This document shows positions 1,719-33,651 of a stretch of DNA of 64,000 bases, in pieces (within the stretch, counting starts at the first letter, position 1; each line of letters starts with the position of its first letter). The translations under genes were made by a program, and so were the position numbers. A model generated the notes under the pieces. It was not told where the DNA came from, did not search any database, and saw nothing but the letters and a program-made list of their open reading frames with translations. The stretch comes from Gammaproteobacteria bacterium (GTDB lineage Bacteria > Pseudomonadota > Gammaproteobacteria > Pseudomonadales > Halieaceae), in contig JAUHXH010000006.1 in the NCBI GenBank assembly GCA_030427085.1, forward strand, positions 52,023-116,022, in the 5' to 3' direction.

Positions 1719-1728
1719 ATTCATCGAC

Positions 1729-3189: not shown

Positions 3190-3197
3190 GGACCCCC

Positions 3198-5755: not shown

Positions 5756-6994
5756 TCACGATTTCCCCCAGGGCGCCACCCGGAACAGCAACAGCATCCC
5801 CGGCACCGCCAGAAGCGCACACAGCAGGAAAAAGTCCACGTAACCAACACGCTCAATGATCCAGCCAGTGCTGGCGTTGGCGAAGGTGCGCGGCAAAGTA
5901 GCCAGCGCGGTGAACAGCGCAAATTGAGTGGCTGCGAATTGCCGACTGGTTTCCCGGGCGATAAAGGCCGTAAACGCGGCAGCGCCCAGCCCCACCCCCA
6001 GGTATTCAAAAGCGATCACCACGCCTAACAAGCCTAAACCCGGCTCTTCCGTGGAGGCCAGCACTGCATAGCCGAGAATACTCACCAGCTGCACCACACC
6101 AAACAGCCAAAGCGCTTTGTTGATGCCCAGGCGAATCATCGCCAAACCACCCAGCAAGCCGCCAAACACTGCCGGCCACAGGGCCGCGTTTTTCGCGACT
6201 ACGCCAATTTCGGTCAGACTGAAACCCATATCGATATAAAACGGCGTTGCCAGTGCCGTGGCCATGTTGTCGCCGAGTTTGTAGAGAAACATAAAGCCCA
6301 ACACCAGCAACAGGCCCTGCCAACCGCGGCGGTGAAGGTACTCCAGAAAGGGGGCAACTATCGACTGGCGCAAGCTCAGGCCCTGCGGTGTTTCCGAGGG
6401 GGGCTCTTCCACCAACAGCGCCATCACGATACCTGCCGCCATGAATGCGCCGGTGATCCAGAACACCGAACTCCAGGGCAGGTGATCAGCGAGAATCAGC
6501 GACAGCGAACCGGGCACCAGACCCGCAATGCGGTAGGCCTGAACATGGATGGAGTTACCGAGGCCCAGCTCTTCGTCCGACAGAATCTCGCGCCGATAGG
6601 CGTCCAGCACCACGTCCTGCGTGGCACTGAACAGCGCCACAATGAAGGCCATCGCAGCGATAATGCGCGTGGATTGCTCCGGTTGGAAGGCGCCCAGCAT
6701 GCCGATACTGCACAACAGCGCCACCTGACATATCAGCATCCAGCCCCGCCGCCGTCCGAACAGTGGCGGCGCGTAGCGGTCCAGCAAGGGGGCCCACACG
6801 AACTTCCAGTTGTAGGGCAAGCCCACCAGTGCGAACAGACCAATCTCGGTCAGGGATACGCCACCCTCGCGCAGCCACGCGGGGACAAGTTGAATCAGCA
6901 CATAAAGGGGAAGGCCTGAGGCAAAGCCGGTGAAGATACAGATCAGCATCCGGCGGTTGAACACCACCTCGCGCCAGTGAGTGGTAGCCGTCAA
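5756..6994 (-). CDS. ampG: AmpG family muropeptide MFS permease
   Basis: A 412-aa polytopic membrane protein whose N-terminal FTGFASGLPLYVL..LREGGVSLTEIG and overall pattern are typical of AmpG. It starts 21 nt after the gspH stop. Confidence 0.8.
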   Translation of the reverse strand: MTATTHWREVVFNRRMLICIFTGFASGLPLYVLIQLVPAWLREGGVSLTEIGLFALVGLPYNWKFVWAPLLDRYAPPLFGRRRGWMLICQVALLCSIGMLGAFQPEQSTRIIAAMAFIVALFSATQDVVLDAYRREILSDEELGLGNSIHVQAYRIAGLVPGSLSLILADHLPWSSVFWITGAFMAAGIVMALLVEEPPSETPQGLSLRQSIVAPFLEYLHRRGWQGLLLVLGFMFLYKLGDNMATALATPFYIDMGFSLTEIGVVAKNAALWPAVFGGLLGGLAMIRLGINKALWLFGVVQLVSILGYAVLASTEEPGLGLLGVVIAFEYLGVGLGAAAFTAFIARETSRQFAATQFALFTALATLPRTFANASTGWIIERVGYVDFFLLCALLAVPGMLLLFRVAPWGKS

Positions 6995-7015: not shown

Positions 7016-7483
7016 TCAATCAAAACTGCCACAATCCGATTCGCAAAGGTCGACCCGACCCAGCAGCCAGTCCACCTGCAATTCCGTGAGCTTACCTTGA
7101 GGGCTGGTCAAACCCACTGCACCACCACTGGCGCTGCCGTCGGGATAAAAACGGATCACACCGCCTTCGTCACGGTTCAGCTCGGCCGCACCCAGCACCT
7201 GCACCTCCACCGAAGCGGGGAGCTGGCTGGTTTTGCCGCCGGCCACCATCTGTTTCTGCCGCGGGCGAACCAACACGTCCTGCGCTGTACCGCCCGACAC
7301 CGCCGAGATGCGGGCGGCATTCAAGGTGCTCATCACATCGCGTACCGCGCTGCGGTACTGCATGTTCTCGTACATGCGCGCGCCAGCGGGCGTTGCCACC
7401 GCCAGCACCATCGCCAGGATGCCCAGCGCGATCATCACCTCCATCAAGGTGAACCCGCTGGAACGTCTGGACGTGCTGCGCAT
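7016..7483 (-). CDS. gspH: Type II secretion minor pseudopilin GspH
   Basis: It has a prepilin-type N-terminus, SSGFTLMEVMIALGILAM, is 155 aa long, and lies directly downstream of gspG. Confidence 0.8.
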   Translation of the reverse strand: MRSTSRRSSGFTLMEVMIALGILAMVLAVATPAGARMYENMQYRSAVRDVMSTLNAARISAVSGGTAQDVLVRPRQKQMVAGGKTSQLPASVEVQVLGAAELNRDEGGVIRFYPDGSASGGAVGLTSPQGKLTELQVDWLLGRVDLCESDCGSFD

Positions 7484-7506
7484 GTTTACTCGCTCAACGT
7501 GCGGAA

Positions 7507-7944
7507 TCAGTAATTACTGACATCCGCGTTCTCGCCATCACCACCCGGCGAACCATCCGCGCCGTAGCTGATGATGTCGAAACTGCTGCGCTCGCCCGGA
7601 AACTTGTAGATGTATTCGTTGTTCCAGGGATCTGCGGGGACTTTGGATTTCAGGTAGGGACCATTCCAGCCATCGGCATTGCCGGGCTTGTGAATCAGGG
7701 CATCCAGGCCATCACTATTACTGGGATAGCGGCCCACGTCCAGCTTGTACATCTCCATGGCGTTCTCCAGATCCTTGATCTGGACCTTGGCGGTTTTGCT
7801 CTTGGCGCCGCCGAGCTGGTTCAGCACGGTGGGGCCGATCAGGCCAGCAAGCAAACTCAGGATGGCCAGCACCACCAACAGTTCGATCAGGGTCAGGCCC
7901 GCCTGGCGATCGCGACGGCGCTGCATGTTTGACTGGGCTTTCAT
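7507..7944 (-). CDS. gspG: Type II secretion major pseudopilin GspG
   Basis: AGLTLIELLVVLAILSLLAGLIGP together with DGWNGPYL..DPWNNEYIY are GspG signatures. Confidence 0.95.
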   Translation of the reverse strand: MKAQSNMQRRRDRQAGLTLIELLVVLAILSLLAGLIGPTVLNQLGGAKSKTAKVQIKDLENAMEMYKLDVGRYPSNSDGLDALIHKPGNADGWNGPYLKSKVPADPWNNEYIYKFPGERSSFDIISYGADGSPGGDGENADVSNY

Positions 7945-8030
7945 GTTACTTCCTCGTACTTGGATTCGTTGTCGCCTACTGGCGATGTCGGGGACAATTG
8001 GGCTCGCTTCGCGGCGCTGCGTTCCCTGCC

Positions 8031-9233
8031 TCAGAAGGCCATATCGTTGACCGAAAGGATACCGGAAAGAATGGCGATAATGATAACGGCGATAGCGCCG
8101 CCCATGAACAGGATCAGTGCGGGCTCCAACATGGCCAGCGCGCGTTTTACGCCAGCTTCCACCTCACCGTCGTATACTTCCGCCAGTTCGATCAGCATCT
8201 GGTCAATAGAGCCAGACTCCTCCCCCACGCGCACCATCTGGATTACCAGTGGAGAGACAAAACTGGCTTCATCCAGTGCGTGGGACATACGCTGGCCGCG
8301 TTTTACGGCGGGCTCCAGCACGCTCAGTGCGTCTCTGATCACGGTGTTATCGACAGTACCGGTACCGATAGTGATGGCCTGTAATAGCGACACGCCATTG
8401 CCCACCAATGTGCCCACGGTGCGGGCAAACTTGGCGATTTCGTACTTGAACACAACGTCGCCGAGTATGGGTAATTTCAGCAACCAGCTATCGCGCTTGG
8501 CCTGCCCTTCCGGCGTTGCCAACCAATTTTTCAGGAACCAGCCAATACCGGCGATGATCAGCAGCATCAGCCAGCCCCAGTCGGCAATGGCATCGCCCGC
8601 GGCGATCACCATGCGCGTTAGCACCGGCAGGGAATCGCCCATGTCTGCAAACAGGGCTTCGAACTGGGGCACCACAAAACCGAGAATCACGGCGATGGAC
8701 AGCACTGCTACCGTCAGCAGAATGCTTGGATAGATCAGCGCGGAAATCACACTACTGCGAACTTCCTTGGAACGTTCCAGGTATTCCAACAAACGACCCA
8801 GCACCTGCGCCAGGTGGCCACTGGCTTCACCGGAGCGCACCATATTGATATAGAAATTGCCGAACACTTTCTGGTGCGGCTGCAATGACTGGGAAAGGCC
8901 TTTACCGCCCTTCACACCGGTTAACAGTTCGTCGAGCAGGGCGGCCAACTTCGGCTCCGCCGCCATGTCGATCATCACTTTCAAGGCGCGGTCGATAGGT
9001 AGTCCGGCGCGCAGCAGCACGGTGAGTTCGCGGGTGAGACTAAGTACCTGATCTTTCCCTGCGGCTTTACCACCACCGGCGGCCACCGCAACCGCCTTGC
9101 CCGGTTGCAAGTCCAGTAGCGTAAGCCCCTGTGCACGCAATTGACGGGAGGCCAGCTCTTTGCGATCGGCGGTAACGGAGCCCTGAACAGTCTTACCGTT
9201 GGCACCGATGGCTTTGTAGTTGAAATTGGGCAT
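8031..9233 (-). CDS. gspF: Type II secretion inner-membrane platform protein GspF
   Basis: A 400-aa protein with the duplicated GspF/PilC architecture (..ALIYPSILL.., ..EVYDGEVE..LEPALILFMG). Confidence 0.95.
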   Translation of the reverse strand: MPNFNYKAIGANGKTVQGSVTADRKELASRQLRAQGLTLLDLQPGKAVAVAAGGGKAAGKDQVLSLTRELTVLLRAGLPIDRALKVMIDMAAEPKLAALLDELLTGVKGGKGLSQSLQPHQKVFGNFYINMVRSGEASGHLAQVLGRLLEYLERSKEVRSSVISALIYPSILLTVAVLSIAVILGFVVPQFEALFADMGDSLPVLTRMVIAAGDAIADWGWLMLLIIAGIGWFLKNWLATPEGQAKRDSWLLKLPILGDVVFKYEIAKFARTVGTLVGNGVSLLQAITIGTGTVDNTVIRDALSVLEPAVKRGQRMSHALDEASFVSPLVIQMVRVGEESGSIDQMLIELAEVYDGEVEAGVKRALAMLEPALILFMGGAIAVIIIAILSGILSVNDMAF

Positions 9234-9253
9234 GGAATTGGGTGCTACCGGCC

Positions 9254-10969
9254 TCAGGCAATCGCCGCTTCAGCCTGGGGCTGTGCTTCTTCATCACGCT
9301 GGTCCTGGGTCACGCGGAACACCTCTTCCAGCGAAGTTTGACCACTCACCACCTTGCGCAGGCCATCTTCAAACAAAGTGATCATGCCACCCTTGCGGGC
9401 CACACCGTGCAGCGTACGCGCATCGGAGCCGGCGAGAATGGCGCGGTGCATTTCGCCGTCCAGCACAAACAGTTCGTGAATACCGGTACGCCCGGCATAG
9501 CCGCTGTGGTTGCAATGATCGCAACCCGCCGCGCGGTAAATGGTGTTTTGCCCCTCGGGCAGGAAACGACCCAGGCCGTACTCTTCAATCAATGCTGGCG
9601 TCAGCTCCAGAGGCTCACGACAACTCTGGCACAGGGTACGCACCAGACGCTGGGCCAGCACGCCGTTTACGGCAGAAGTAATCAGGTAGCGCTCGATGCC
9701 CATATCCTCCAGACGGGTAATGGCACCGGCAGCAGTGTTGGTGTGCAGCGTGGACAACACAAGGTGGCCTGTGAGCGCGGATTGCACACCGGTCTGGGCG
9801 GTTTCGGTGTCACGCATCTCACCAATCATGATGATGTCCGGGTCCTGACGCAGGATGGAGCGCAGGGCGCGGGCGAAGTCGAGATCGATCTGCGCCTTCA
9901 CCTGAATCTGGTTTACGCCGTCCAACTGGTATTCCACCGGATCTTCAACGGTGATGATTTTCAGTGCTGAAGAGTCCATCGATGCCAGCGACGCGTAGAG
10001 CGTGGTGGTTTTACCAGAGCCCGTTGGGCCGGTCACCAGCAGCACACCGTGAGGGCGCGCCAGCAGCTCGCGGAAAGTGCCCAGCGTATCTTCACTGAAA
10101 CCCATGTCCGACAGGCTCAGGCGAATACTGTCGCGATCCAGTACCCGCATGACGATGCTCTCGCCATGTACCGTGGGAATGGTGGAAACACGCAGGTCGA
10201 GTTCGTGGCCTTTTACGCGCGTCATGATGCGCCCATCCTGGGGCAGCCGTTGTTCGGCAATATTCAGGTTCGCCATCAGCTTGATCCGCGAGGCGATCGC
10301 TGGAGCCAGATGGGCCGGCGGCGGATCTTCAATTTCGCGGATCACGCCGTCCACGCGGTAACGCACGTGCAGTCCGTCTTCGAAGGGTTCGATATGGATA
10401 TCAGAAGCGCCAAGGTCCATGGCGCGGTGAATCAACTGGTTCCCCAGACGAATGATGGGCGCTTCGCTGGCCAGATCCTTGAGGTGCTCGATGAACTCAT
10501 CGTCGCTGGCGAAGGCGCTGATGCCTTCTTCCTCTTCGGCTTCAGCCTCTTCTTCCTGGGTGTATTTCTGCAGAGCGGAGAGTACATCCCCTTCCAACGC
10601 CAGAGCCAATTGCACAGGTTTACCCAAAGCGAGACCCAGCGCTTTTTTGAGGTAGGGGTCCTGAGGAACAACGGCAGCGAAGGCAACGGCATCTGCGGAA
10701 ACTGAAACAGGCACCACGCTGTTGTTCAGCATAAATTCGAGCGACAAGCCGCCCAGCGTCAGTGGCTCTTCGGGAAACTCGGCAGCGGTAAGCAGCGCAA
10801 CGTCCAACTGGCGGGCAAGCACCTGCACCAAGTCGCTCTCCGACACCAGCCCGAGCTTTACCAACACTTGCCCAAACAGGCCGCCCATTTCCGACTGGGC
10901 CACCAGCGCCCGTTCCAGGTCTCGGGTGGTAATTTTGCCCTGCTCTACCAGCAGTTCACCAAGTTTCAT
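9254..10969 (-). CDS. gspE: Type II secretion ATPase GspE with an MshEN-type N-terminal domain
   Basis: It carries Walker A GPTGSGKTTT, Asp/His boxes and a tetracysteine CQSC..CDHC. The N-terminus holds two 24-aa motifs separated by 5 aa (see finding). Confidence 0.95.
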   Translation of the reverse strand: MKLGELLVEQGKITTRDLERALVAQSEMGGLFGQVLVKLGLVSESDLVQVLARQLDVALLTAAEFPEEPLTLGGLSLEFMLNNSVVPVSVSADAVAFAAVVPQDPYLKKALGLALGKPVQLALALEGDVLSALQKYTQEEEAEAEEEEGISAFASDDEFIEHLKDLASEAPIIRLGNQLIHRAMDLGASDIHIEPFEDGLHVRYRVDGVIREIEDPPPAHLAPAIASRIKLMANLNIAEQRLPQDGRIMTRVKGHELDLRVSTIPTVHGESIVMRVLDRDSIRLSLSDMGFSEDTLGTFRELLARPHGVLLVTGPTGSGKTTTLYASLASMDSSALKIITVEDPVEYQLDGVNQIQVKAQIDLDFARALRSILRQDPDIIMIGEMRDTETAQTGVQSALTGHLVLSTLHTNTAAGAITRLEDMGIERYLITSAVNGVLAQRLVRTLCQSCREPLELTPALIEEYGLGRFLPEGQNTIYRAAGCDHCNHSGYAGRTGIHELFVLDGEMHRAILAGSDARTLHGVARKGGMITLFEDGLRKVVSGQTSLEEVFRVTQDQRDEEAQPQAEAAIA

Positions 10970-11130
10970 GCTGTGTTCCGTCTACTAGCGAAAATGATCG
11001 CGTGGACGCGCCACGCGAACGTGGAGTCTAACACTTCCAGCGTTCAGAGAATGTACGATGTCTACGACAGACCGATAGTGGGCAAGTTCCGCCCCGGACG
11101 GGGCGGAATGGGAGAGATGCTACAAATACC

Positions 11131-12099
11131 TTAATTAGCAGACGTCTTGTCCGCTTTGGCTTTTCCGAGATCAACAGGTACCACGTACTCTTCGCGCAGT
11201 GATTCCAGGGCAGCTGCATCGATAGTGAAGTCAGCGGTGTTAGACCGCATCTGGATCATTTTATCTTGCCATATCTTGCTGCTCATGGCCGCTTGAGCTT
11301 CCAGAATCAACTCATTCTTTGCCTGATCAAAAGGCTTTTTCCCGGCCGGTTTACGACCTTCGTAGCGAATGATGTGGTAGCCAAATCGTGACTTCACCGG
11401 CTCGCTGATTTCACCGGCTTTGGTCATGCCAAAAGCCACTTCTTCAAAAGGCTTGACCATCTGCCCACGCGGGAAGAATCCGAGGTCACCCGCGTTGCGA
11501 CTGGCTGAACTGTCATCAGAGAATTCTTTGGCGAGTTCGCCGAAATCCTCACCTTTCGCCGCACGCTCACGAAGCTCCTTGGCCAGCGCTATGGCCTCTT
11601 CTTCAGTGCGCTCGTCCAGGCCGACAAGTATATGTGATGCGTGCACTTGCTCAGGCTCCTGGAAACGTTCGGGCTCTGCCTTGTAGGTCTCCATCGCCAG
11701 CGCGTCCCAATCAACACCTGCCATCTGTGATTCGACGTAACGGATACGGTACTGCGCTACATTGCGGCGATCGGACATCATTTGACGCGCCCAATCAGAT
11801 TGGGCGGTATCAAAATCTTCACGGGTCTTTGCTTCTGCGGCGACCGCACGAATAATGTACAGACTCTCCGCCATTTCCTTAAAGATACCAGGGCGTCGCA
11901 GAATGGCCGCGGCCTGTTCGGCGGGCAGGTTTTCTGCGATATAGCGCTCTATATCCTCTCGGGTAATCGAAAAGCCAGATTTAGAGCTGAGAATTTCGCT
12001 GTCAGGGTTTCCACTGATCTCCAGAACCTGAGCACTGGCGCCTACGCTTCCCAACCAGCAAAACGCTGCAGCTGAGATAAACTTTGTCATTCCCTTCAT
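11131..12099 (-). CDS. Periplasmic parvulin-type peptidyl-prolyl isomerase (SurA/PpiD-like)
   Basis: Signal peptide MKGMTKFISAAAFCWLGSVGASAQ. The parvulin domain reads HASHILV..GDLGFF..FGYHIIRY. ATG 12099 is preceded by AGAGGAAG. The longer track ORF to 12198 would run through a terminator. Confidence 0.85.
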   Translation of the reverse strand: MKGMTKFISAAAFCWLGSVGASAQVLEISGNPDSEILSSKSGFSITREDIERYIAENLPAEQAAAILRRPGIFKEMAESLYIIRAVAAEAKTREDFDTAQSDWARQMMSDRRNVAQYRIRYVESQMAGVDWDALAMETYKAEPERFQEPEQVHASHILVGLDERTEEEAIALAKELRERAAKGEDFGELAKEFSDDSSASRNAGDLGFFPRGQMVKPFEEVAFGMTKAGEISEPVKSRFGYHIIRYEGRKPAGKKPFDQAKNELILEAQAAMSSKIWQDKMIQMRSNTADFTIDAAALESLREEYVVPVDLGKAKADKTSAN

Positions 12100-12122
12100 C
12101 AACTTCCTCTTTCGTAACAAAC

Positions 12123-12154
12123 AAAAGACGCCAAACCGAGGTTTGGCGTCTTTT
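12123..12154 (-). terminator. Rho-independent terminator after the polyserine protein gene
   Basis: An 11-bp perfect stem, GACGCCAAACC/GGTTTGGCGTC, with a 2-nt loop. On the minus strand it is followed by TTTTGTTTGTT. Confidence 0.85.
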
Positions 12155-12210
12155 ATACTTCTTTTTACCACGCTTCCAGGCATCGCCGGGAAGCGCACTT
12201 GGCGACTATC

Positions 12211-12939
12211 TTACCAGCGAACGTCGAAGTAGAACTGGCAGTGGTAGCCAGAGCAAGAGTCCGAATGAACGTTCAAGTAGTACTTGGTATCCGGCGCCAT
12301 GCTGCAGTAGCCTGGAGAGCTATCTGCCATTTCCGCACGCAGTGATACTACGTTACTGCTCGCTTTCGTACAGGATGCCTCGGGCAACGCGTCGCCGCCG
12401 GGGCACGTTGAAATCCAGGCTGTACGAACAGTGTCGTAGGAACTGGAGTAGGTAGTCACAGAGAACCTCGGGCGAACGGTGGTGCTATTCGGGCTCTGGA
12501 ATGGCATGGACACAATACCGTTGTTAGTACCACGGAGGAGAATTTGGCCACGTTTGTTCATATCGATCGCTCCACCAACATCTACCCCGGAAGGAGTGGA
12601 TGGGCAGTTTGCATCGGGATCCGGAGTAGGATCAGTTCCGCTGGAAGAACTGCTGGAGGTAGTGCCCGAACTGGAGCTGCTACTAGAACTGGAAGTCGTA
12701 CCCGAGCTTGAGCTACTACTTGAACTGGAAGTTGTGCCCGAGCTCGAACTGGAACTACTCGTGCTACCGCCACCGGTAACTGTAACACCGGTACCTTCCG
12801 AAATAGTGATATCACCATTCGTGTCGATGGTGACAGAAGTCGCATCAAAGGAAGCGCCGTTTATTGTAACTGTCAGTGCGAGGGTGGTCAGCGGAGCTGC
12901 AACAGCCGCTACACCCAATGCAATCAGTGATTTACGCAT
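12211..12939 (-). CDS. Secreted protein: small N-domain, polyserine linker and a Cys-containing C-terminal domain of unknown function
   Basis: Signal peptide MRKSLIALGVAAVAAPLTTLA. The linker is (S7-9 GTT)x3-4. The C-terminal roughly 135 aa contain 6 Cys. The gene has its own AT-rich upstream region and terminator. Confidence 0.8.
   Translation of the reverse strand: MRKSLIALGVAAVAAPLTTLALTVTINGASFDATSVTIDTNGDITISEGTGVTVTGGGSTSSSSSSSGTTSSSSSSSSSGTTSSSSSSSSSGTTSSSSSSGTDPTPDPDANCPSTPSGVDVGGAIDMNKRGQILLRGTNNGIVSMPFQSPNSTTVRPRFSVTTYSSSYDTVRTAWISTCPGGDALPEASCTKASSNVVSLRAEMADSSPGYCSMAPDTKYYLNVHSDSCSGYHCQFYFDVRW
12634..12765 (-). repeat. In-frame tandem repeat encoding a polyserine linker (SSSSSSSSSGTT units, about 36 nt)
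   Basis: On the plus strand the units read repeatedly as gaactgga(a/g)(c/g)t(a/g/c)...gtgcccga(g/a)ct. The translation is STSSSSSSSGTTSSSSSSSSSGTTSSSSSSSSSGTTSSSSSSGT. Confidence 0.85.
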
Positions 12940-13210
12940 TTTTCATCTCCCGGAAATGGTCAGAGCGAGATATAACCGTAGTGTATATTGCTTTTCTTTA
13001 AAAGCATTATGTAAGAAAAAAGCACTTTCGCTTGCCGGCATCCCCACACACAGTCAGAGCAATCGCGCTTAATTCACGAATTCCAGTGCATTTTACACAG
13101 GGAACCGAGGTGTGGGAACAGCTTCAGGAGTGAAAAATTGACCATTTTTTGTACAGATTCATGAGAGAAAAAGACTGACACACCTGGCTGGGGAAAACAC
13201 AAATTCAGAG

Positions 13211-13240
13211 CAAAAAAAAGCGCGGCCGGAGCCGCGCTTT
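13211..13240 (-). terminator. Rho-independent terminator after the 478-aa secreted protein gene
   Basis: A 9-bp stem, AAGCGCGGC/GCCGCGCTT, with loop CGGA. An A8 run on the plus strand gives a U8 tract on the minus strand. Confidence 0.85.
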
Positions 13241-13258
13241 TCGTACAACAGCGAGTGA

Positions 13259-14692
13259 TTAGCTGCCAATTACTTTTGTGGTTTTGTGAGTCACAGAACC
13301 AGCGTAGTTGGACAGAACACCACCCAGGTCGCCGTTCACGTACTTCTGTACAGCGAAGCCGATTACGGGCAGACCGTTCAGTACGTCAGGACCGCCAGCG
13401 TCGAGCTTACGGGCAGTACCGTTACCAACAACGGCGGGGATAGAACCACCGAATACTGACTCGTTCATGGACAGGGAAGCCCAGCCATTCTCGAAGTCCA
13501 GCGGGATGCTGGTGATAGTACGGTCGCTAGCTTTCAGTACGTTGCTCTCGTTGAAAGAGATAACGTTAGCTTCGGCACACAGTACGTTCGGCGCAGGACC
13601 AGGACGCGGCGGAGAGTAGTCCAGCGGATCTACACCTTCACGGCCTTCTTCACGGTCGTAGTAAGTGATCTGTACAACTTCACAAGCGGGAGCCGGAGTT
13701 GCAGCAGCACCTTCCCAGATGTCGGTGAAGGGAGCCAGCGGATCGGGGCCAGCGTTTACGTAAGAGCGCTTGGTCGGGAAGGTAACAACCCAGTCAGTGC
13801 CCGCCTGGATAGCTTCTTCCAGTACGTAGTCGTTAGCGATAGAGTCAGCCATCAGGACAGCAGACACAGCGTCGATCGCGTCAACAGCGCTACCAGTTAC
13901 AGGCGCAGCAACAGTTGCGTTGGTGTCGAAGAACGCCCAGTTCAGCTCACCGTCTTCCAGGCTAGGCTGAGTGTTGCCGGGCTGGAAGTGCAGAGGAATG
14001 GTAGAGAAGTGGTCGATGGCAGTCGCGTCGTAAGTTGCGTCAGTACCTTCAGCCACGTCGATCAGTACGCCGTAGCCGTACAGACCACCGCTGGGAGCCA
14101 GGATGGAGTCGTTAGCGTTCAGAGACCAGTTACCACCAGCCTGCCAAGCAGCTTCAACGGTGCCACAGCTAGCAGGAACGCCAGCTACGTGAGTAGCAGC
14201 AGTGCCCACAACGGCGCCGAAAGTGGTGGTCATGTCGATGTCGCCCATCTCGATGACTTCAACGTAACCTTCGCGAGTACGCGCCAGGCTGTTGTCGATG
14301 GTGTCGCCCAGGAAGGCAACGTTACGGAAAGGTACGGTGTCGCCCTGGCTCAGACCGTTAGGAACAGTACAGCTGGTGTCAGCAGTACGGATCACGGCGC
14401 CTTCACCAGCCGGATCGGCGGTGATAACAGCAGACCAGTGGTCTTCGGGGGACAGGTACAGGTTAAAGTCGAGTACTTCCACAGAGTTCATGGACTCGAG
14501 GATACGAACTTTAACGGCTTTAACTTGGTCAGTGGTGTTGACCAGGTTGATCAGGGTGTCCTGGCCGCCTTCTACAGTGTAGAAAGGGTACAGAAGCACC
14601 TGGCCGAGACCGGTGTCGGCAACGTTTACAGCTTGTGCGCTGTTTACGCCTGCCAGAGCCGCGGCTACTGCTACGGGAAGAATCTTCTTCAT
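13259..14692 (-). CDS. Secreted protein of unknown function (478 aa), candidate T2SS substrate
   Basis: ATG 14692 is preceded by AGGAG. The signal peptide is MKKILPVAVAAALAGVNSAQA|VNV. I recognise no catalytic motif. The 70-codon N-terminal extension in the ORF track lacks an RBS or signal peptide logic. Confidence 0.8.
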   Translation of the reverse strand: MKKILPVAVAAALAGVNSAQAVNVADTGLGQVLLYPFYTVEGGQDTLINLVNTTDQVKAVKVRILESMNSVEVLDFNLYLSPEDHWSAVITADPAGEGAVIRTADTSCTVPNGLSQGDTVPFRNVAFLGDTIDNSLARTREGYVEVIEMGDIDMTTTFGAVVGTAATHVAGVPASCGTVEAAWQAGGNWSLNANDSILAPSGGLYGYGVLIDVAEGTDATYDATAIDHFSTIPLHFQPGNTQPSLEDGELNWAFFDTNATVAAPVTGSAVDAIDAVSAVLMADSIANDYVLEEAIQAGTDWVVTFPTKRSYVNAGPDPLAPFTDIWEGAAATPAPACEVVQITYYDREEGREGVDPLDYSPPRPGPAPNVLCAEANVISFNESNVLKASDRTITSIPLDFENGWASLSMNESVFGGSIPAVVGNGTARKLDAGGPDVLNGLPVIGFAVQKYVNGDLGGVLSNYAGSVTHKTTKVIGS

Positions 14693-15061
14693 GTTTATTG
14701 CTCCTAGGTTTAACAATAAGTTTTTGCCACGGAAAGCGGGACAAAAGCTCGCGCAGTATACCCTAAGCCCGTGACCTGTCCACCCCAAGGTGGGCATTTC
14801 AACGGTTTTAGGGGCCACTGCCTGCCAATTCGTGGAAAATTCCCCTAATTGGCTTTGCTCAGCGCCACTTTCTGTAACCAAACTAGCTGGCCTGGGAGGC
14901 ATTGGTTATTAAAAACTTGAGCCACCCGCGCCAAACTATTGGTGATTATAAGAAAAAGGTTCTTGAGCGCAACCGGAATTAGGGCTCGAAACGTGTGTTT
15001 TTTGCGGTGAATAAAATGGGAATAAACTTTCGGCTGGGCCGTCCTCACCTATATGGAGCCG

Positions 15062-15487
15062 TCACTTAGTGGGGACGTATATCCACCACTGCCCTTCGCT
15101 TTTCACCCATCGATAGTCCAAAGAACGGCTGTTCTTCACCCCCATGTGCGGAATGTCGTACTCAACGACCATACGCACTGAGCAGAGATCTTCTACATTA
15201 CACTCTACCTTGCCCACTTTGGCGGAGGTCCAGCGACTGGCACCCGCAATACGCGCATGATAGTGGCCGGTGGTAGCAAACTTGCGGTAGGCGGGGGTTG
15301 TGTACTCAAAAGCAGCTTCAAGATTTTTTGCCATCAGCGCATTTGCCCAGGCCTGCGCCCGCTCGCTGACCTGCTCCGATGGGGAGACTGGCTCAGACTG
15401 GCCACCACAGGCACTCAGTACAGCGATCAGCAAACTCAACCCTGCCAGTCGGGAACCGCGCAATTTTGCTACATTCATTTTAGTCAT
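15062..15487 (-). CDS. Small lipoprotein (about 141 aa) downstream of gspD
   Basis: The lipobox LLIAVLSAC|GG is followed by a compact domain of about 110 aa. The start is ambiguous (15502, 15487 or 15478); 15487 has GGAG 9 nt upstream. Confidence 0.7.
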   Translation of the reverse strand: MTKMNVAKLRGSRLAGLSLLIAVLSACGGQSEPVSPSEQVSERAQAWANALMAKNLEAAFEYTTPAYRKFATTGHYHARIAGASRWTSAKVGKVECNVEDLCSVRMVVEYDIPHMGVKNSRSLDYRWVKSEGQWWIYVPTK

Positions 15488-15559
15488 TTCCAACTTCTCC
15501 ATACCTCGAGCCCGGGGTTCACGCCGCCAGACTCGTCCTATCACGATTCTGACAGCCTG

Positions 15560-17833
15560 TTAATCTGACGTTGACTCACCCAATGAGGGGTTCAACAGGG
15601 TCGATGTGCTCTCAGGGTCAATCAACTTCAGCTCTCGCATCCGCGACCGCATCTCCCGGGTCACAGCCCGCGCCTCTTCTTCATTGAACAGCACGCGCGG
15701 CGTAATGATCACCACCAACTCAGTCCGACGGCCATTGTTGGCCTTGGTCCCGAACAGCGCACCCAGCACCGGAATCTGGTGCAAACCGGGCAGGCCCTGA
15801 CTGGAATCCGTCACATTCTCTCGAATCAAACCACCCAGCACTACCGATTCGCCAGTGCGGACCGCTACACGACTGCTGATATTACGCTCAAGAAAGCGGC
15901 GCTGGCCGGTAGTGAGCTCGATTTCACCGATATCGGTCACTGACTGCTCTACGGTCATGGTCACCATACCGCCCGCATTGACGGACGGAGTAACCGACAA
16001 TTTCACACCCGTATCCCGGAATTCCACCGAGTTGGTGATGTTGCCGCCGCCAGTTACCGTCTGGGAGGAGCGTACCGGCACCTGGTCACCCACGTGGATC
16101 GCGGCAGTGTGGTTGTCCAGCACCATCACGGAAGGCGTGGAGATCACGTTGATCAGTGACTGTGTGGCAAGAGTGTTCAGCACGGCGCTGATCTCACCGC
16201 CGCCATTGGTCACAGTCCATGAGAAGCCGGGGATGCGCGGGCCAATTTCACTGTCGGTATTTACCAGTTGACCCACGGAATCGTAGCGAGTGCCCAAACC
16301 GGCCTTGAACGCCCACTCCAGACCATATTCCAGTTCGTCGGTTAGGCTCACTTCGAGGATGCTGGCCTCAATAATGACCTGGGTAGACACCACGTCGAGT
16401 CGCTCCAGTGCATCGCGGATTTTCCGGTAATCAGTCAGGTTGGCATATATAAGGAGGGCATTATTCTCTTCATCCGCAACAATGCGCACATCGTCAATGG
16501 AGTAATTGGCACTACCACCACCAACTTGCTGTGACCGCTGGAGGTTGCCGCTGATGTTGGACCCCACACCACTGCTGGTGGACCCACTGCGATTGGTATT
16601 GCTGGACAGACTGCTGCCACTACCGGTTACTCGCTCAGCTGTCAGCCCGGGCGACACACCGGCACCGGTGCGATTTTGCCGATTGGCACCACTGGTTTTG
16701 CCGGAGTAGATCTGGCTCAGCAGGTCAGCCAGTCGGATCGCAGAGCTATTCTGCACCGGGTACACGTACAGGCGCTCTTCAAAGTTGGCGTCAGGCTCGC
16801 GATCCAGTCGATCGATCCAGTGTTTCACGCGCTCCAGATAGTGCGCCCGCGGGGTGATGACGAGAATACTGTTCAGTTGCTCCAGCGGGATCACCCGGAT
16901 CAGCCCGGCCAGCGCGCCGTCATCTTTTTCACCCTTTTTTCCCGACGCAGTTTCCACGCCTCCAATCAGGGCATCCAGCGCGGGCTCTACTTCTTCCACG
17001 GTGCTGTGCACCAGCGGGAAGATACCGACCGACATGCCTTTCATGATGTCTATATCGAAGGTGTTGATCATCTCCAGCCAGCCGTCCATTTGCAGGCGGG
17101 TCCCGGCCAGCACCAGCAGATTGCGACGGTTGTCTACGCGCACAAAGGCGGTTTCGTCTGCCATGGGTTCCAGGATGGAGGCCATCTCGCTGGCACTGAT
17201 GTAAGACAGGGGGATGATGACGTTGCTAAATCCCGGGCCCTGGTCCTTGGGGCTGGAAAAGCTGGGGCGAAGGGAAGACATGTTGGGCGAGCCGCTAATA
17301 TAGAAGCGGTCGTTCTCGTCCCGCACCATCACGGCGCCGTTGGACTGGAGTAAAGATTCCAGCACCACCAACACTTCATCACGCTTTAGCAGGCTGCGAG
17401 TGCGCAGGGTGACTTCGCCCTGAATGGGGTGCTCGACGATATAGTCCAAACCAAGCAAATCACCCATTACAGCGTGAATCACTTCGGTCAACGGTGCCTG
17501 TTCAAAATTTAGAGCAACGTCGTCGCCAAACAGCAGCAACTCAGGCTTCTTCTCAGGCATTTTCACTACCTGATTGTTGCCTTTCAAAATCGTCGCCTGC
17601 GCGGGCGGCGTCTCATCCAGCGTCCGCTGCGCCAATTCTGCTGCGCTTGTCGCCGTGGCCTTCTGCGCGCTCTCCTCATTGTTGACGATACGGGCATTCT
17701 CCGGCGGGTCGATCCCGTCGCTGCCGCCTGCATTTAGCCCCAGGGTTTCACACCCTGCCAGACTCAGGCCCAGCAGCAAGGCCAGGCTCCATCGTGCCAA
17801 GTTCATGCTGTACACGTTCCCTTTATTCATCAC
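15560..17833 (-). CDS. gspD: Type II secretion secretin GspD with an N-terminal lipobox (liposecretin-like)
   Basis: The N0 domain (VALNFEQAPLTEVIHAV), the N1-N3 repeats and the secretin core (VISTPSVMVLDNHTA..VPVLGALFG) are present. The N-terminus reads LALLLGLSLAGC. The real start may be M10 at 17806. Confidence 0.95.
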   Translation of the reverse strand: MMNKGNVYSMNLARWSLALLLGLSLAGCETLGLNAGGSDGIDPPENARIVNNEESAQKATATSAAELAQRTLDETPPAQATILKGNNQVVKMPEKKPELLLFGDDVALNFEQAPLTEVIHAVMGDLLGLDYIVEHPIQGEVTLRTRSLLKRDEVLVVLESLLQSNGAVMVRDENDRFYISGSPNMSSLRPSFSSPKDQGPGFSNVIIPLSYISASEMASILEPMADETAFVRVDNRRNLLVLAGTRLQMDGWLEMINTFDIDIMKGMSVGIFPLVHSTVEEVEPALDALIGGVETASGKKGEKDDGALAGLIRVIPLEQLNSILVITPRAHYLERVKHWIDRLDREPDANFEERLYVYPVQNSSAIRLADLLSQIYSGKTSGANRQNRTGAGVSPGLTAERVTGSGSSLSSNTNRSGSTSSGVGSNISGNLQRSQQVGGGSANYSIDDVRIVADEENNALLIYANLTDYRKIRDALERLDVVSTQVIIEASILEVSLTDELEYGLEWAFKAGLGTRYDSVGQLVNTDSEIGPRIPGFSWTVTNGGGEISAVLNTLATQSLINVISTPSVMVLDNHTAAIHVGDQVPVRSSQTVTGGGNITNSVEFRDTGVKLSVTPSVNAGGMVTMTVEQSVTDIGEIELTTGQRRFLERNISSRVAVRTGESVVLGGLIRENVTDSSQGLPGLHQIPVLGALFGTKANNGRRTELVVIITPRVLFNEEEARAVTREMRSRMRELKLIDPESTSTLLNPSLGESTSD

Positions 17834-18446
17834 GGTTGTTGTCAGGCGCTTCGGCCTGCTCTGGTGGTTGATCTTTGGGCGCTGCCTTCGCCTGGTTGGC
17901 CTGTGCCCGGGCGCGCCGTTGGGCTACGCCAGGTTTGGGGGCATTGCGCGGAAAGGCGTGCTCCAGTACGAGCGGGTGGTTTCTGGCACCTTTTTTAAAC
18001 TGGACGCGATCACCAGTGGGCGTCACGCTCGCCAGCTTCCACCCGAGCAAATTCTCCCCAACGGCCACACGATGGGATTCATTGCCCACTCGCACGATAA
18101 CAACCGTGCTGTCGCCAGCCTTCATCACAGCGGTCAGGGTTGCTTTGTTCAGTGCATTGTTTGGCGCGACTTTCTCTTGCTTGGGTGCGTTACTCCCCGC
18201 GCCGGCCAGCTCACGCTGGCGCCCATGCCAATAAAGGGGGCGCTCGGTCATCTCGGCATCTTCTTCAGCCAGCGATGCGCGGTAAGCCAGCTCCGCTGCC
18301 TGCACTGCGCTTTCCGCAGGCGCAACGGGGGATGGATTGCCCGCCATCACCACGCGCATCACCCCCCACAGCACCACTGCAACGGCCAACCCGGTCACAC
18401 CGAGCACAGCCATTCGCACATTATTGGTAGTCAACAGGGGGCTCAT
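17823..18446 (-). CDS. GspC-like (PilP/HR-domain) secretin-coupling protein without a PDZ domain
   Basis: It has a single N-terminal TM segment (VLGVTGLAVAVVLWGV), a linker and a small beta-domain (ATLTAVMKAGDSTVVIVRVGNESHRVAVGENLLGWKLASVTP..VQFKKG). It sits immediately upstream of gspD. An assignment as GspN is not excluded. Confidence 0.55.
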   Translation of the reverse strand: MSPLLTTNNVRMAVLGVTGLAVAVVLWGVMRVVMAGNPSPVAPAESAVQAAELAYRASLAEEDAEMTERPLYWHGRQRELAGAGSNAPKQEKVAPNNALNKATLTAVMKAGDSTVVIVRVGNESHRVAVGENLLGWKLASVTPTGDRVQFKKGARNHPLVLEHAFPRNAPKPGVAQRRARAQANQAKAAPKDQPPEQAEAPDNNRDE

Positions 18447-18489
18447 GCCGTTTTACTCCGACTCATTGACTGCCGATGGCGCCAGAGGT

Positions 18490-19068
18490 TCATTTCAACA
18501 TCCTCAACGACACCATTTTAAAACGGGCCGACAAGGGCCGGCGATCTTCTCCCGCGCGCGGTGTGCCGTCGGAACTACGGCGGACGCGACCGGGCTTGAT
18601 GGTCACCGATTCGATAATTACCAGTGGCCGCGCGGCGCGCAGGTCATCCAGGGTTTGCGCAAGGGCATCAATGCTGCCAACAGCGGTAACATCCAGCCGC
18701 AGTTCGAGCAGATCTCCCTCCCGCCTTTCCGGGAGTATCTGGCTACCGGAGACGGTAAATCCAGCCTCGGTCATCACGTTACGCACCGACTGCTGCATAG
18801 CGGCCGCCGTCATCGCGGTATCGCCATTGGCAGGATAAGCCAGCTCAGCCAGTTGCGCGTTGGCACGCGTAAACGCCGCGGCCAGATCCTCTTCACGTTC
18901 CTGCACACCCAGCAAACGCGCGGTGCGCGGCTCAACCCGATCAATGTGCTCGGCATAGCCCTGGCGGATACCCCACAAACTGGCGAGCACATACAACACC
19001 ACAACGGCCACCAGTGCGAACGTACCTCCCACCACCAGGCGACCAGGAGTTAGCCAGCTATTACTCAC
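18490..19068 (-). CDS. gspM: Type II secretion protein GspM-like
   Basis: A 192-aa bitopic protein with an N-terminal TM and a ferredoxin-like periplasmic domain. It lies after the gspL-like gene, with a 4-nt overlap. Confidence 0.6.
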   Translation of the reverse strand: MSNSWLTPGRLVVGGTFALVAVVVLYVLASLWGIRQGYAEHIDRVEPRTARLLGVQEREEDLAAAFTRANAQLAELAYPANGDTAMTAAAMQQSVRNVMTEAGFTVSGSQILPERREGDLLELRLDVTAVGSIDALAQTLDDLRAARPLVIIESVTIKPGRVRRSSDGTPRAGEDRRPLSARFKMVSLRMLK

Positions 19069-20096
19069 GAGCCTGTCTCCACCGGCCTGGCTTCTTCCGG
19101 CAGCGTCAACTCGAACACGAAGCGCTCCATCCCGTCACGCCCCACCTTGCGAATACCTACGGTGGCTTTTACCCCGTCGTAGTTGGCGGCGTCGGTTAGC
19201 TGTTGCATTACCGCCGAGGCATTGGGGGACTGACCATCGATGCGAATGGAACCGGGGCGCACATCCACCTGGGTAAGGAAGGTGTTGTCATCCAACAGTC
19301 GGGAAATTGCGCTTAACTCGTTGTACACATCGGGGTGGGCCGACAGCAGACTGTTGGCCCGCTCTATTGTTTCGTTGGCGGTGGCGAGACGGTTACGCAG
19401 GCTAACCGCGCGGGCGGCGGTTTGTTTGGCGCCTTCAAACGCCTCTTCCGTCTTGCGCAGTTCCAGGTATTTAAAGCCGGTGGACAGCGCCATGCAAACC
19501 ACCAGCATCCCCATGCAGTAAGCCAGGGCGAGCCCCATGCGCACGAGTTTTTTGCGGTAACGTTCCCCGCGGCCGGCTTCACCGAAGCCCTGCACCATGA
19601 CCGCCTGATTAGAGGCACGAGCCCATACTTCATAGGCTGTGCGCTCGTGCGAATCAAACTGACTAGCGATGTATTCCATCACCGAACTGCGAGCGCACAG
19701 CACCAGCACCACTACCAGGGAATCGCCTCGAGGCTCACCCAGCGTCCAGCCGTAAACGGTATCATCTGCGGGGAAAGGGCTATTGGCCGCTACTTCCATT
19801 GCCAGCACAGCGTCGAGATTGGACTGTGCTGCGAGGGGCAGCGTGAGCTCACGGCTCAGGACGAGTTCGTCAGGCAGCATCACTGCTTCCGCCTGCGTTT
19901 CCACCGTTGCCACTTGCTCTCCACCCTTGAAGGTGTAGGTACTGCCTGCTTCGTGCATTGTCACCGGCTCATCCAGTGACTGGCGGACTGTGGACGTGGG
20001 GCCCCACAGAAAATCGCGCCAACCAGCGCGATAGGTATGACCGATCTGGCGGACGTCGTAGCCGAACAGGGACCATGACTGACTGCTATCGAGCAT
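19065..20096 (-). CDS. gspL: Type II secretion protein GspL-like (cytoplasmic domain, TM and PilN-like periplasmic domain)
   Basis: A 343-aa protein with a central TM (LALAYCMGMLVVCMALS) and a coiled segment followed by a periplasmic domain. It lies between gspK and gspM. Confidence 0.6.
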   Translation of the reverse strand: MLDSSQSWSLFGYDVRQIGHTYRAGWRDFLWGPTSTVRQSLDEPVTMHEAGSTYTFKGGEQVATVETQAEAVMLPDELVLSRELTLPLAAQSNLDAVLAMEVAANSPFPADDTVYGWTLGEPRGDSLVVVLVLCARSSVMEYIASQFDSHERTAYEVWARASNQAVMVQGFGEAGRGERYRKKLVRMGLALAYCMGMLVVCMALSTGFKYLELRKTEEAFEGAKQTAARAVSLRNRLATANETIERANSLLSAHPDVYNELSAISRLLDDNTFLTQVDVRPGSIRIDGQSPNASAVMQQLTDAANYDGVKATVGIRKVGRDGMERFVFELTLPEEARPVETGS

Positions 20097-20141
20097 GCCA
20101 CCCCCTGTTACCTGACTGATTCATCAAACTCTCAACACTCA

Positions 20142-21065
20142 TTACAGCACCCGCACGGGTTCACTGCGAAAAAACGACCAAGGCAGACCATCCTGCCCAC
20201 TGGCGCTGGTATCGGCCCAACGCCGGCGTAAGTACTTTTTACCACCGACTCTCACCACCGCGTCCATTCGGTAAAGCGTTGAGCTGGTGGCCAACAAAAA
20301 CTCGCCTGAAAGATCTGCGGGCGGTAAACCCAGATCGGCACCCTGCTCGCCGCGAGACTGCACAATCTGCTGCGCCAAGGCCGCATCACCACCCACAATG
20401 GCCTGCAGTACCGACGCCGGTGCCGTGCTCCAATTCACCCCTGTCGCTTCCTGGGGCGCAACATACACAGCATCGCGGATCCGATCCATCACGGCGCGGT
20501 TCATTCCCGGGATCAGCAGCAGGTCTTCCAAGATGCGCAGGCGCCCGTATCGCGGCTGGTAGCCAGAAGGCCATACCACACCAGTATTCGCCTGGATTGC
20601 ACCGGGGTTGTAGGTACGCGGCGTGCGCCACTCTACCACACTTTGGGCCAGTAAATTAGCGGCTTCCGGGGCCATACCGCCCACCCCCGCAAACAGCAAT
20701 GCCAACAGTTCCGGCGGCGCAACATTCACGCTAATCAGGCCATCCAGAGGCGTTGCCATTACCTCCACATTGTGCGACCCAAGGCGATACGTCGCGGTGA
20801 AATTGCGGGGCTGGTCTTCCAACATTTGTTGCTGGGCGAGCTGGCGCTCCAAAAGGGCCATCTGGATGGCGCCATCGGCGGCCGCTATGCTTTCGGCGCG
20901 TTCGCGTTGCAGCTGGGCGAGCTTGATGTCCACTCGCGCTTGATAGCTGATACCCGCCGCGAGCAGCGCCAAGGCTGCGAGGAACCACAGCATCACCGCC
21001 AGCGTTACGCCGCGTTGCCGCTGCATCTCGCGTGGGCACCTAGATATCACTGCCGCGCCCCTCAT
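20142..21065 (-). CDS. gspK: Type II secretion minor pseudopilin GspK
   Basis: QRGVTLAVMLWFLAALALLAAGIS is the GspK-type N-terminus, which lacks the conserved Glu5. The protein is about 300 aa. The start may be M14 at 21026. Confidence 0.8.
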   Translation of the reverse strand: MRGAAVISRCPREMQRQRGVTLAVMLWFLAALALLAAGISYQARVDIKLAQLQRERAESIAAADGAIQMALLERQLAQQQMLEDQPRNFTATYRLGSHNVEVMATPLDGLISVNVAPPELLALLFAGVGGMAPEAANLLAQSVVEWRTPRTYNPGAIQANTGVVWPSGYQPRYGRLRILEDLLLIPGMNRAVMDRIRDAVYVAPQEATGVNWSTAPASVLQAIVGGDAALAQQIVQSRGEQGADLGLPPADLSGEFLLATSSTLYRMDAVVRVGGKKYLRRRWADTSASGQDGLPWSFFRSEPVRVL

Positions 21066-21678
21066 CCAGGCGGATTACCAATTCCGGCCAGTAGCGATCG
21101 GCCACTTTCAGATTCATCCGTACACTGACCGGGTTGGAGTAGGCACCGCCCCACTCCGCAATCCACTCCTCGCCATAGCCCGGGCGAAAGCCGAACTCAA
21201 TTTCCTCAACGTCCTCCAGCAGAACATGGGGCTTGATGTCGTCCCAGTCGTCCCATTTCTGCACCCGCCGGTACGGCTGCCAGCGCAGTTGCAACTGCTC
21301 ATTCACCAGCGTCATGCGCAACAGATAAAAACCACCAAAACGCTCACCGGCGGCAAGGGGCGCGGCCCAGATCAGCTCCTGGCCATCGCTCCAGAACAGC
21401 GTGTTTTGCGAGTTGACGCCGGAGTCGCGACCACCAGGTATCACATCCGGGGTCGCCCCCATCACCGGCACCGCCGAACCAATTGAATCGCGCAAAAAGC
21501 TGCTCAACTGCCGTACGGAGGTGATGCGCCCCGTGACATTGTCGAGCGCGGCCTGGGTACGCCCGAACGAGCGCAGTGCAGACACCAGCGCCGCCATGAT
21601 CAGGCTCAACACCACCAACGCGATCAGTACCTCCACGATGGTGAGGCCCTGCTGCCGTTTTGTGTGATACAGGTTCAA
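21040..21678 (-). CDS. gspJ: Type II secretion minor pseudopilin GspJ
   Basis: QQGLTIVEVLIALVVLSLIMAAL is a prepilin N-terminus. The protein is 212 aa and has a 4-nt overlap with gspI. Confidence 0.85.
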   Translation of the reverse strand: MNLYHTKRQQGLTIVEVLIALVVLSLIMAALVSALRSFGRTQAALDNVTGRITSVRQLSSFLRDSIGSAVPVMGATPDVIPGGRDSGVNSQNTLFWSDGQELIWAAPLAAGERFGGFYLLRMTLVNEQLQLRWQPYRRVQKWDDWDDIKPHVLLEDVEEIEFGFRPGYGEEWIAEWGGAYSNPVSVRMNLKVADRYWPELVIRLDEGRGSDI

Positions 21679-22088
21679 ATCGGCGGAGCCTCCATGCCGG
21701 CAACCACTGAGTGAAGAGAGACCTCGCGATCATTCGCGCCGTCTTCCCAACTCACGGTTACCACAATTTCCTGCAACAACCCCGGCTCGAGGGTCGGTGG
21801 CGCGTCATTCACCTGGATAGGGGCCGCATTGACTTGCCAGCGGAAGGCACCGGAAGTTTCGCCGCGATTGCTGAATCCTTCGCGTGGCACCACGGCATTG
21901 TCTGCCAACAGGGATTGGGCGAGTTCAACGGCATAAGCGTACTTTTCGTCCACGCGTACAATGCGCGTGGCGCCGCCAACGATCTCGTAGAGCGCAGCCA
22001 GGGAAATGCCGAGGATGGCAACTGCAACCACCATTTCCAGCAAACTGAATCCGCGCTGACTCTCGCCCGCGCGCTGCCCCCTGATCAT
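21675..22088 (-). CDS. gspI: Type II secretion minor pseudopilin GspI
   Basis: ATG 22088 is preceded by GGGAGAGG. QRGFSLLEMVVAVAILGISLAAL is a prepilin N-terminus, and the protein is 137 aa. Confidence 0.8.
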   Translation of the reverse strand: MIRGQRAGESQRGFSLLEMVVAVAILGISLAALYEIVGGATRIVRVDEKYAYAVELAQSLLADNAVVPREGFSNRGETSGAFRWQVNAAPIQVNDAPPTLEPGLLQEIVVTVSWEDGANDREVSLHSVVAGMEAPPI

Positions 22089-24877: not shown

Positions 24878-24881
24878 GGCC

Positions 24882-26072: not shown

Positions 26073-26217
26073 TCCGGGGTCCTTTGGGTGAAATTACTGA
26101 AGCAACCAGCGCCATCCGCAGCGCGTGCGCTGGGAGTGTAGCACAGGGGCGCCGCGTCGAAAGGGCTTGACGACGGGAGGATTGTGGGGCGACACGGCCA
26201 CCCCAAAAAGGGAGATT

Positions 26218-26236
26218 CCCGGAGCCAGGCTCCGGG
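26218..26236 (-). terminator. Possible terminator hairpin after aceF
   Basis: CCCGGAGCC-A-GGCTCCGGG lies 8 nt after the aceF stop. On the minus strand it is followed by AATCTCCCTTTTT, so the U-tract is displaced. Confidence 0.45.
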
Positions 26237-26243
26237 GGGAAAA

Positions 26244-27848: not shown

Positions 27849-27870
27849 GGATACGTCCTTCTCTTATTCG

Positions 27871-33647: not shown

Positions 33648-33651
33648 TGTT

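Follow-up and report, generated by a model that had tools for sequence, protein, structure and literature searches.

What does a type II secretion system (T2SS) export when its genes stand in a permuted order and share their cluster with genes for other secreted proteins, and how did such an order arise? The question is raised by a locus in a 64,000-nucleotide stretch of DNA from a Halieaceae genome (Gammaproteobacteria; contig JAUHXH010000006.1). The whole stretch is referred to as the window, and positions are counted from its first nucleotide. The locus occupies positions 7016-22087 of the minus strand and is flanked by ampG. In the direction of transcription it reads gspI-J-K-L-M-C-D-lipoprotein, followed by the gene for a 477-amino-acid (aa) homolog of the surface-layer (S-layer) protein NpdA (X), the gene for a polyserine protein (Y), a parvulin peptidyl-prolyl isomerase (PPIase) gene, gspE-F-G-H and ampG. 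Every gene was located where an earlier, sequence-only reading of the window had placed it, and the T2SS gene set and its permuted order are as described there. The identity of the cargo as an S-layer protein homolog was absent from that reading. We favour the view, at a probability of roughly 0.85, that this is an NpdA-type S-layer biogenesis locus with a dedicated Xps-type T2SS, and that its gene order is a derived rotation.

The cargo gene encodes an NpdA homolog

X aligns with NpdA of Paracidovorax citrulli (WP_011797163, from the supplement of PMC10765051) over residues 7-407 of its 477, at 28% identity (BLASTP, E 7e-33). It is 58% identical to a Nitrincola protein contained in the NpdA ortholog file of the same paper. 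NpdA forms the S-layer of P. citrulli, as established by mass spectrometry, gene deletion and cryo-electron microscopy (cryo-EM) (PMC10765051). An NpdA S-layer had been shown earlier in Delftia, where self-assembly of the protein depends on lipopolysaccharide (LPS) (PMC3110197). Orthologs of npdA are listed for Halieaceae, Gilvimarinus, Nitrincola and others, and S-layers were seen by cryo-EM in most of 16 npdA-carrying cultures, including Congregibacter and Haliea (PMC10765051).

The N-terminus of X is a signal peptide, MKKILPVAVAAALAGVNSAQA, with cleavage after ...SAQA and VNV as the first residues beyond the cleavage site. No Pfam or NCBIfam profile matches X even at E 10, and no relative was found by sequence in the PDB. 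The family comprises at least 2,482 protein clusters, annotated as 'hypothetical' or 'cell surface protein', with members from Halioglobus, Haliea, Nitrincola, Neptunomonas and Pseudoteredinibacter. The AlphaFold2 (AF2) model of X is rich in β-strands (pLDDT 80, pTM 0.84), which fits an uncharacterised S-layer fold and proves nothing.

The identity of X to most other Halieaceae homologs is 27-29%, against 58-59% to the Nitrincola protein and to a protein of one relative (G036). GspD is ~50-55% identical to all of these same relatives, those with a divergent NpdA included. The G+C content dips to 52-54% across the PPIase, Y and npdA genes (window 11000-15000), compared with 57-61% on either side. 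The dip and the contrast between NpdA and GspD identities are consistent with either exchange of the coat genes as a cassette or their very rapid evolution.

A second T2SS inherited with its cargo

A canonical cluster, gspC-D-E-F-G-H-I-J-K-L-M-N, lies on contig C1 of the same genome, with strong equivalog matches; the npdA-linked system is therefore not the sole T2SS of the genome. A single prepilin peptidase gene (Peptidase_A24, C1:460026) is present in the genome, adjoining pilB/pilC-like genes, and none is found within the npdA-linked cluster.

In a survey of 60 relatives for X and the Xps-type GspM (T2SSM_b), the two occur together in all 21 relatives that carry X, and neither occurs in 37. 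GspM without X is seen in two relatives, 83% and 94% complete, with the GspM match on a short contig in each. Since the X and gspM genes are linked, the co-occurrence means that they are inherited together as a unit and does not amount to an independent correlation. The string gspD-lipoprotein-X-(Y)-PPIase is found in most of 80 loci from named genomes, spread over Halieaceae, Oceanospirillales, Lysobacterales, Halothiobacillus, Gallionellaceae, Rhodocyclaceae, Burkholderiaceae and Ca. Nitrotoga. The cargo genes and the PPIase gene are conserved partners of the T2SS across Gamma- and Betaproteobacteria. Together, the second T2SS, the conserved synteny and the co-occurrence argue for a specialised secreton with private cargo and foldase, as the sequence-only reading had suggested.

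This arrangement agrees with published neighbourhoods, in which a 12-gene gsp cluster precedes npdA, in Betaproteobacteria as well as in Gammaproteobacteria such as Halieaceae. P. citrulli likewise has two gsp clusters, and the gsp content near npdA varies, gspEFGHI being missing beside npdA in Nitrosococcus, for example (PMC10765051).

Three rotations of one gene order

The loci fall into three orders. In the common type A, E-F-G-H-I-J-K-L-M-(C)-D-lipoprotein-X-(Y)-PPIase, the cargo block comes last and the gsp genes ahead of it keep the Xps order. In type B, that of the window, gspI to gspD, the lipoprotein gene, X, Y and PPIase precede E-F-G-H. Type B is also found in Halioglobus and Haliea assemblies (L034, L036-L040, L042) and in a further genome, G010, where ~8.5 kb, including homologs of two glycosyltransferase-like genes, separate the PPIase gene from gspE. 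Type C, X-(Y)-PPIase-E-F-G-H-I-J-K-L-M-C-D-lipoprotein, occurs in Gilvimarinus and Cellvibrio-like genomes (Cellvibrionaceae) and in G056. All three are rotations of one cyclic order of the blocks [EFGH], [IJKLMCD-lipoprotein] and [X-Y-PPIase]. None of the three conceivable non-cyclic block orders was found among the loci long enough to judge, although the independent events are few.

The direction of the rearrangement is given by a type A relative, G012. Its order is ampG...PPI-X-D..I-HGFE; beyond this come an mbl (metallo-beta-lactamase-fold) gene, which adjoins gspE, and further genes, all of them shared with window 24041-33683. The matching flanks indicate that EFGH was relocated to the ampG side in the window. 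Only this move is derived; the position of C and D after M, and of the lipoprotein and cargo genes behind D, is ancestral in the locus family. The rotation that the sequence-only reading had described is thus real, but the reference order C-D-E...M against which it had been measured is not the appropriate one; the Xps order E-F-G-H-I-J-K-L-M-N(C)-D serves better. What had been taken for a four-gene insertion between D and E is instead the ancestral tail of the cluster, behind which EFGH has moved. A recent insertion of the cargo block was also considered and rejected, since D-lipoprotein-X-PPIase is the arrangement that beta- and gammaproteobacterial loci commonly show.

In the NpdA tree, the window clusters with seven other type B loci, G010 excepted (SH-aLRT 92). 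In the GspD tree, the type B loci fall within a single clade of Halieaceae; the best tree needs two changes, and a single origin is not rejected (approximately unbiased (AU) test, p 0.10). No relics of a tandem duplication were found in the 21 bp between gspH and ampG or in the ~250 bp upstream of gspI, where no gsp-like reading frame occurs; gaps of this size leave no room for such relics.

Conserved helper proteins

The lipoprotein gene follows gspD in 57 loci, and its lipobox is conserved. In type C it still stands behind gspD, ~17 kb from X, which indicates that the lipoprotein goes with the secretin and not with the cargo. Its AF2 model (pLDDT 90) matches NTF2-like structures in Foldseek: the N-terminal domain of PBP2a, ketosteroid isomerase and SnoaL-like proteins. 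A classic pilotin of the GspS/AspS type was considered for this protein and rejected, the fold being NTF2-like and no pilotin standing among the top 50 PDB matches.

With the C-terminal domain of Y as query, jackhmmer finds a homolog in 54 loci, some of them betaproteobacterial, placed between npdA and the PPIase gene. Y has no Pfam match and no meaningful PDB sequence match. It is absent from one clade of Halieaceae in which NpdA, too, has diverged strongly (27-29% identity to X). A PPIase homolog is located downstream of npdA in 81 loci.

More tentatively, and against the balance of our own expectation, the NpdA locus may be a three-block unit in which only the cyclic order is conserved, with the lipoprotein, Y and PPIase as obligatory, hitherto undescribed S-layer biogenesis factors and the lipoprotein acting at the secretin. 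If true, the cyclic order would point to tandem duplication with loss, or to end-to-end block transfer, with selection keeping block neighbours together.

Transcription units of the cargo genes

X and Y have upstream regions of their own (370 bp and 320 bp), and each gene is followed by a terminator hairpin, as the sequence-only reading had noted (13242-13215 and 12154-12123). The family was searched for hairpins of at most -15 kcal/mol followed by a T-run within 110 nt of the stop codon. Such a hairpin follows X in 82 of 93 cases and Y in 10 of 14, compared with none of 74 gspD, 23 gspE and 47 gspF genes, 1 of 57 lipoprotein genes and 6 of 81 PPIase genes. The terminators thus exceed chance, and the layout with 'monocistronic cargo' is a property of the family, as would be expected of a gene for a very abundant structural protein that neighbours genes for low-abundance machinery.

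Inside the units from gspI to the lipoprotein gene and from gspE to gspH, all junctions are overlaps or gaps of at most 86 bp. The PPIase gene begins so soon after the Y terminator that it, and in type B perhaps gspEFGH, needs either read-through or a promoter overlapping the end of Y. A promoter overlapping the Y terminator is possible, and the 161-bp gap ahead of gspE may hold a further one. A TATAAA motif is seen just upstream of the Y terminator hairpin (window 12099-12170, minus strand).

Weighing the alternatives

Several points count against an S-layer locus. The S-layer, the secretion and the operon structure of this organism are all predictions from sequence. The identity between X and the verified NpdA proteins is low, and Foldseek comparison of the X model with the PDB gave only partial galectin-like jelly-roll matches (TM-score ~0.15) and no convincing relative, so the fold gives no support to the S-layer assignment. 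Two further, distant NpdA-like paralogs lie in the genome away from any T2SS genes (G000 C1:269326-270684 and C2:101647-103023, both minus strand). They are full length (452 and 458 aa, 26-27% identity) and have signal peptides, and one adjoins a large outer-membrane-receptor-like gene. Given their separation from the T2SS, coat function is not proven by family membership alone. In addition, the co-occurrence of X and the T2SS is in part a by-product of physical linkage, and the PPIase start codon stands only 24 nt beyond the Y terminator.

In one alternative, the T2SS would be dedicated, but to a 477-aa soluble exoprotein or adhesin that forms no lattice, the homology to NpdA reflecting only a shared secreted, β-rich scaffold. 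The 28% identity, the model without a structural relative, the paralogs without a T2SS and the strong divergence of the family in Halieaceae, with 27-29% identity between two clades, would all be compatible with such a protein. However, the alignment with NpdA is nearly full length and includes the conserved blocks of the family, the locus architecture agrees with the published npdA neighbourhood, and the cultures in which S-layers were imaged include two Halieaceae (PMC10765051); the strong private terminator, too, fits a very highly expressed structural gene. A product that forms no lattice is accordingly improbable. That the second T2SS is a general-purpose system, with the neighbouring secreted-protein genes as passengers lacking a functional tie, is more doubtful still: many bacteria do possess two T2SSs with overlapping substrates, yet here the adjacency survives three cluster rotations and two proteobacterial classes, X and the Xps-type GspM occur together in every X-carrying relative (21/21), and a canonical Gsp system is available for bulk secretion. 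As for an assembly or scaffolding artefact behind the permuted order, the genome is a draft of 8 contigs, but the entire cluster lies within one 154-kb contig with tight junctions, gspH and ampG being 21 bp apart, for example, and seven or more independent assemblies (those listed above for Halioglobus and Haliea) have this order too, leaving this explanation a negligible chance.

Proposed pathway

Gene identities, NpdA homology, the second T2SS, synteny and co-occurrence, conserved terminators and the direction of the rearrangement are established by the sequence data; formation of an S-layer by this organism, its export by this T2SS and the roles of the PPIase, the lipoprotein and Y are inferred. 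In an NpdA-type S-layer locus, the gene products could be connected as follows. NpdA would be made at a high level from its own promoter, with transcription ended by its own terminator, and would cross the inner membrane via Sec. In the periplasm it would fold, probably helped by the linked parvulin PPIase, before leaving the cell through the dedicated Xps-type T2SS, whose secretin carries a lipobox, and assembling into a coat over the outer membrane. For the NTF2-like lipoprotein, the most likely role is that of a partner of the secretin or of the machine's outer-membrane end, and Y is most likely a second exported component with an accessory or anchoring role. Bulk secretion would be handled by the canonical Gsp system on C1. 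The order seen today arose when gspEFGH moved from the head to the tail of the cluster, with the chromosomal flanks unchanged, most likely in an ancestor common to several Halioglobus/Haliea genomes.

Relation to known systems

Among known systems, the npdA-gsp1 locus of P. citrulli AAC00-1 and Delftia acidovorans Cs1-4 comes closest; in it, npdA lies directly behind a complete gsp cluster ending in gspD (PMC3110197, PMC10765051). The two loci share a homologous cargo with a signal peptide and no Pfam domain, as well as a second, general gsp cluster elsewhere in the genome. They differ in that gspEFGH of the window follows the cargo block instead of heading the cluster, and in the low identity of the cargo (28%). 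The word 'isomerase' is absent from PMC10765051 and PMC3110197, and the conserved lipoprotein and protein Y are not discussed in them. S-layer genes are likewise physically coupled to T2SS clusters that are thought to serve them in particular for Slr4 of Pseudoalteromonas tunicata (PMC7821379) and for VapA of Aeromonas salmonicida, as cited in PMC10765051; both proteins belong to families different from NpdA.

The Xps T2SS of Xanthomonas (xpsE-F-G-H-I-J-K-L-M-N-D) matches the window in its component types, and its gene order is the ancestral order of the locus family. Xps is a general exoenzyme secreton, whereas the system of the window has a linked cargo, lipoprotein and PPIase. Hxc of Pseudomonas aeruginosa is a second, specialised T2SS with a lipobox-bearing secretin and a linked cargo, the alkaline phosphatase LapA. 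The sequence-only reading had drawn an analogy to Hxc, which is sound in its general idea of a secreton devoted to a linked cargo; a lipobox is readable in GspD of the window as well. It does not identify the closest relative, since the cargo is unrelated (an S-layer candidate here) and Hxc is more distant than npdA-gsp1.

The kind of locus and the npdA-gsp linkage were already published in 2023 (PMC10765051), and the gene order of the window is a clade-specific reshuffle. In the NpdA papers, the following features appear unreported: the NTF2-like lipoprotein tied to gspD in all three orders, the conservation of Y and PPIase across Beta- and Gammaproteobacteria, the near-universal terminator after npdA, and the set of three rotations. 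The favoured reading gives a function to both the 'orphan' secreted protein and the second T2SS of a marine Halieaceae genome, and extends a recently described S-layer system whose loci are very widespread (>550 genome loci matched). The constant helper set of lipoprotein, Y and parvulin PPIase provides testable candidates for S-layer biogenesis factors, and the rotated orders offer natural variants with which the importance of individual gene junctions and transcription units can be probed.

Components of the secretion machine

The coordinates of all features are collected in Table 1. GspE, GspF, GspG, GspD and GspM exceed the curated cut-offs of their profiles. XpsH and XpsI are the best-matching profiles for GspH and GspI, yet the scores are far below the equivalog cut-offs. 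GspH, GspI and GspJ carry the prepilin N-methylation motif, and no N_methyl profile match was found for GspK. Within the GspL family (n=15), the PilN profile is matched by all 15 members, PilM_2 by 6 and T2SSL by 3, and comparison of the family profile with the canonical GspL of the same genome by hhalign gave no credible match (probability 0.3%). By the same method, the GspC-like family profile aligns with the canonical GspC of the genome over residues 49-214, the transmembrane and homology region (HR) part (E 1.2e-4, probability 55%); the match of the short GspC-like protein to TIGR01713 is weak. PDB sequence searches with GspL and the GspC-like protein gave nothing meaningful. The LSLAGC lipobox of GspD is read from the translation, and the secretin may be lipidated there and independent of a pilotin. 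GspI starts at an ATG at 22087, preceded by the ribosome-binding site GGGAGAGG, ~250 bp beyond the upstream acyl-CoA synthetase gene.

Residues 56-142 of GspE form an MshEN-type N-terminal domain (Pfam, E 1.8e-12).

Table 1. Genes and transcription signals of the T2SS and cargo locus, in order of transcription (window positions).
Feature	Coordinates	Strand	Basis and remarks
gspI, minor pseudopilin, XpsI-like	21675..22087	-	N_methyl motif; XpsI profile E 4e-16; opens the predicted operon from gspI to the lipoprotein gene
gspJ, minor pseudopilin	21040..21678	-	N_methyl motif; weak T2SSJ match; position kept in relatives
gspK, minor pseudopilin	20142..21065	-	T2SSK 26.8 bits, cut-off 24.2
gspL, Xps type	19065..20096	-	PilN-like C-terminal domain
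gspM, XpsM type	18490..19068	-	T2SSM_b E 1e-17; NCBIfam T2SS_GspM_XpsM 96 bits, cut-off 60
Short gspC/XpsN-like gene, 207 aa	17823..18446	-	Transmembrane segment and HR domain, without PDZ domain
gspD, secretin	15560..17833	-	TIGR02517 type_II_gspD 434 bits, cut-off 351; Secretin, Secretin_N and N0 domains; N-terminal lipobox LSLAGC
Lipoprotein, NTF2-like fold	15062..15478	-	Lipobox LSAC; follows gspD
Promoter-like site, 370-bp region 5' of npdA	14755..14782	-	TGGACA-16-TATACT, 10/12; consensus match only
npdA homolog (X), 477 aa, secreted, S-layer protein candidate	13259..14692	-	Homology to NpdA; predicted monocistronic
Intrinsic terminator 3' of npdA	13215..13242	-	12-bp stem, then T-run
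Accessory secreted protein Y, 242 aa	12211..12939	-	Small N-terminal module, polyserine linker, Cys-containing C-terminal domain
Terminator hairpin 3' of Y	12123..12154	-	14-bp palindromic stem; 24 nt ahead of the PPIase start codon
Parvulin PPIase, periplasmic, PrsA/SurA-like	11131..12099	-	Rotamase_3 E 1e-29; signal peptide
gspE, ATPase	9254..10969	-	T2SSE E 1e-141, 472 bits
gspF, platform protein	8031..9233	-	T2SSF E 4.5e-52, 176 bits
gspG, major pseudopilin	7507..7944	-	T2SSG E 6e-42, 142 bits
gspH, minor pseudopilin, XpsH-like	7016..7483	-	N_methyl motif; XpsH profile E 2.7e-23
ampG	5756-6994	-	Starts 21 bp after gspH

Neighbouring genes and minor signals

A hairpin with a T-run stands downstream of gspG in 11 of 55 loci at a threshold of -10 kcal/mol, more commonly than after gspD, gspE or gspF. 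It may act as an attenuator that sets the ratio of GspG to the minor pseudopilins.

Downstream of gspH, ampG begins on the same strand at so short a distance that it may share a transcript with gspEFGH. The distance from ampG to the cluster is 4.7-6.7 kb in type A relatives.

Beyond fic and ampG, window 504-4433 on the plus strand holds two glycosyltransferase family 2 (GT2) genes and a third gene without a Pfam match (3186-4433). In relatives (L019/L116 in G036, L021/L118 in G010 and L027 in G008), homologs of these genes immediately adjoin the S-layer cluster at its PPIase end. This neighbourhood suggests that a pathway for glycan or LPS is connected with the coat.

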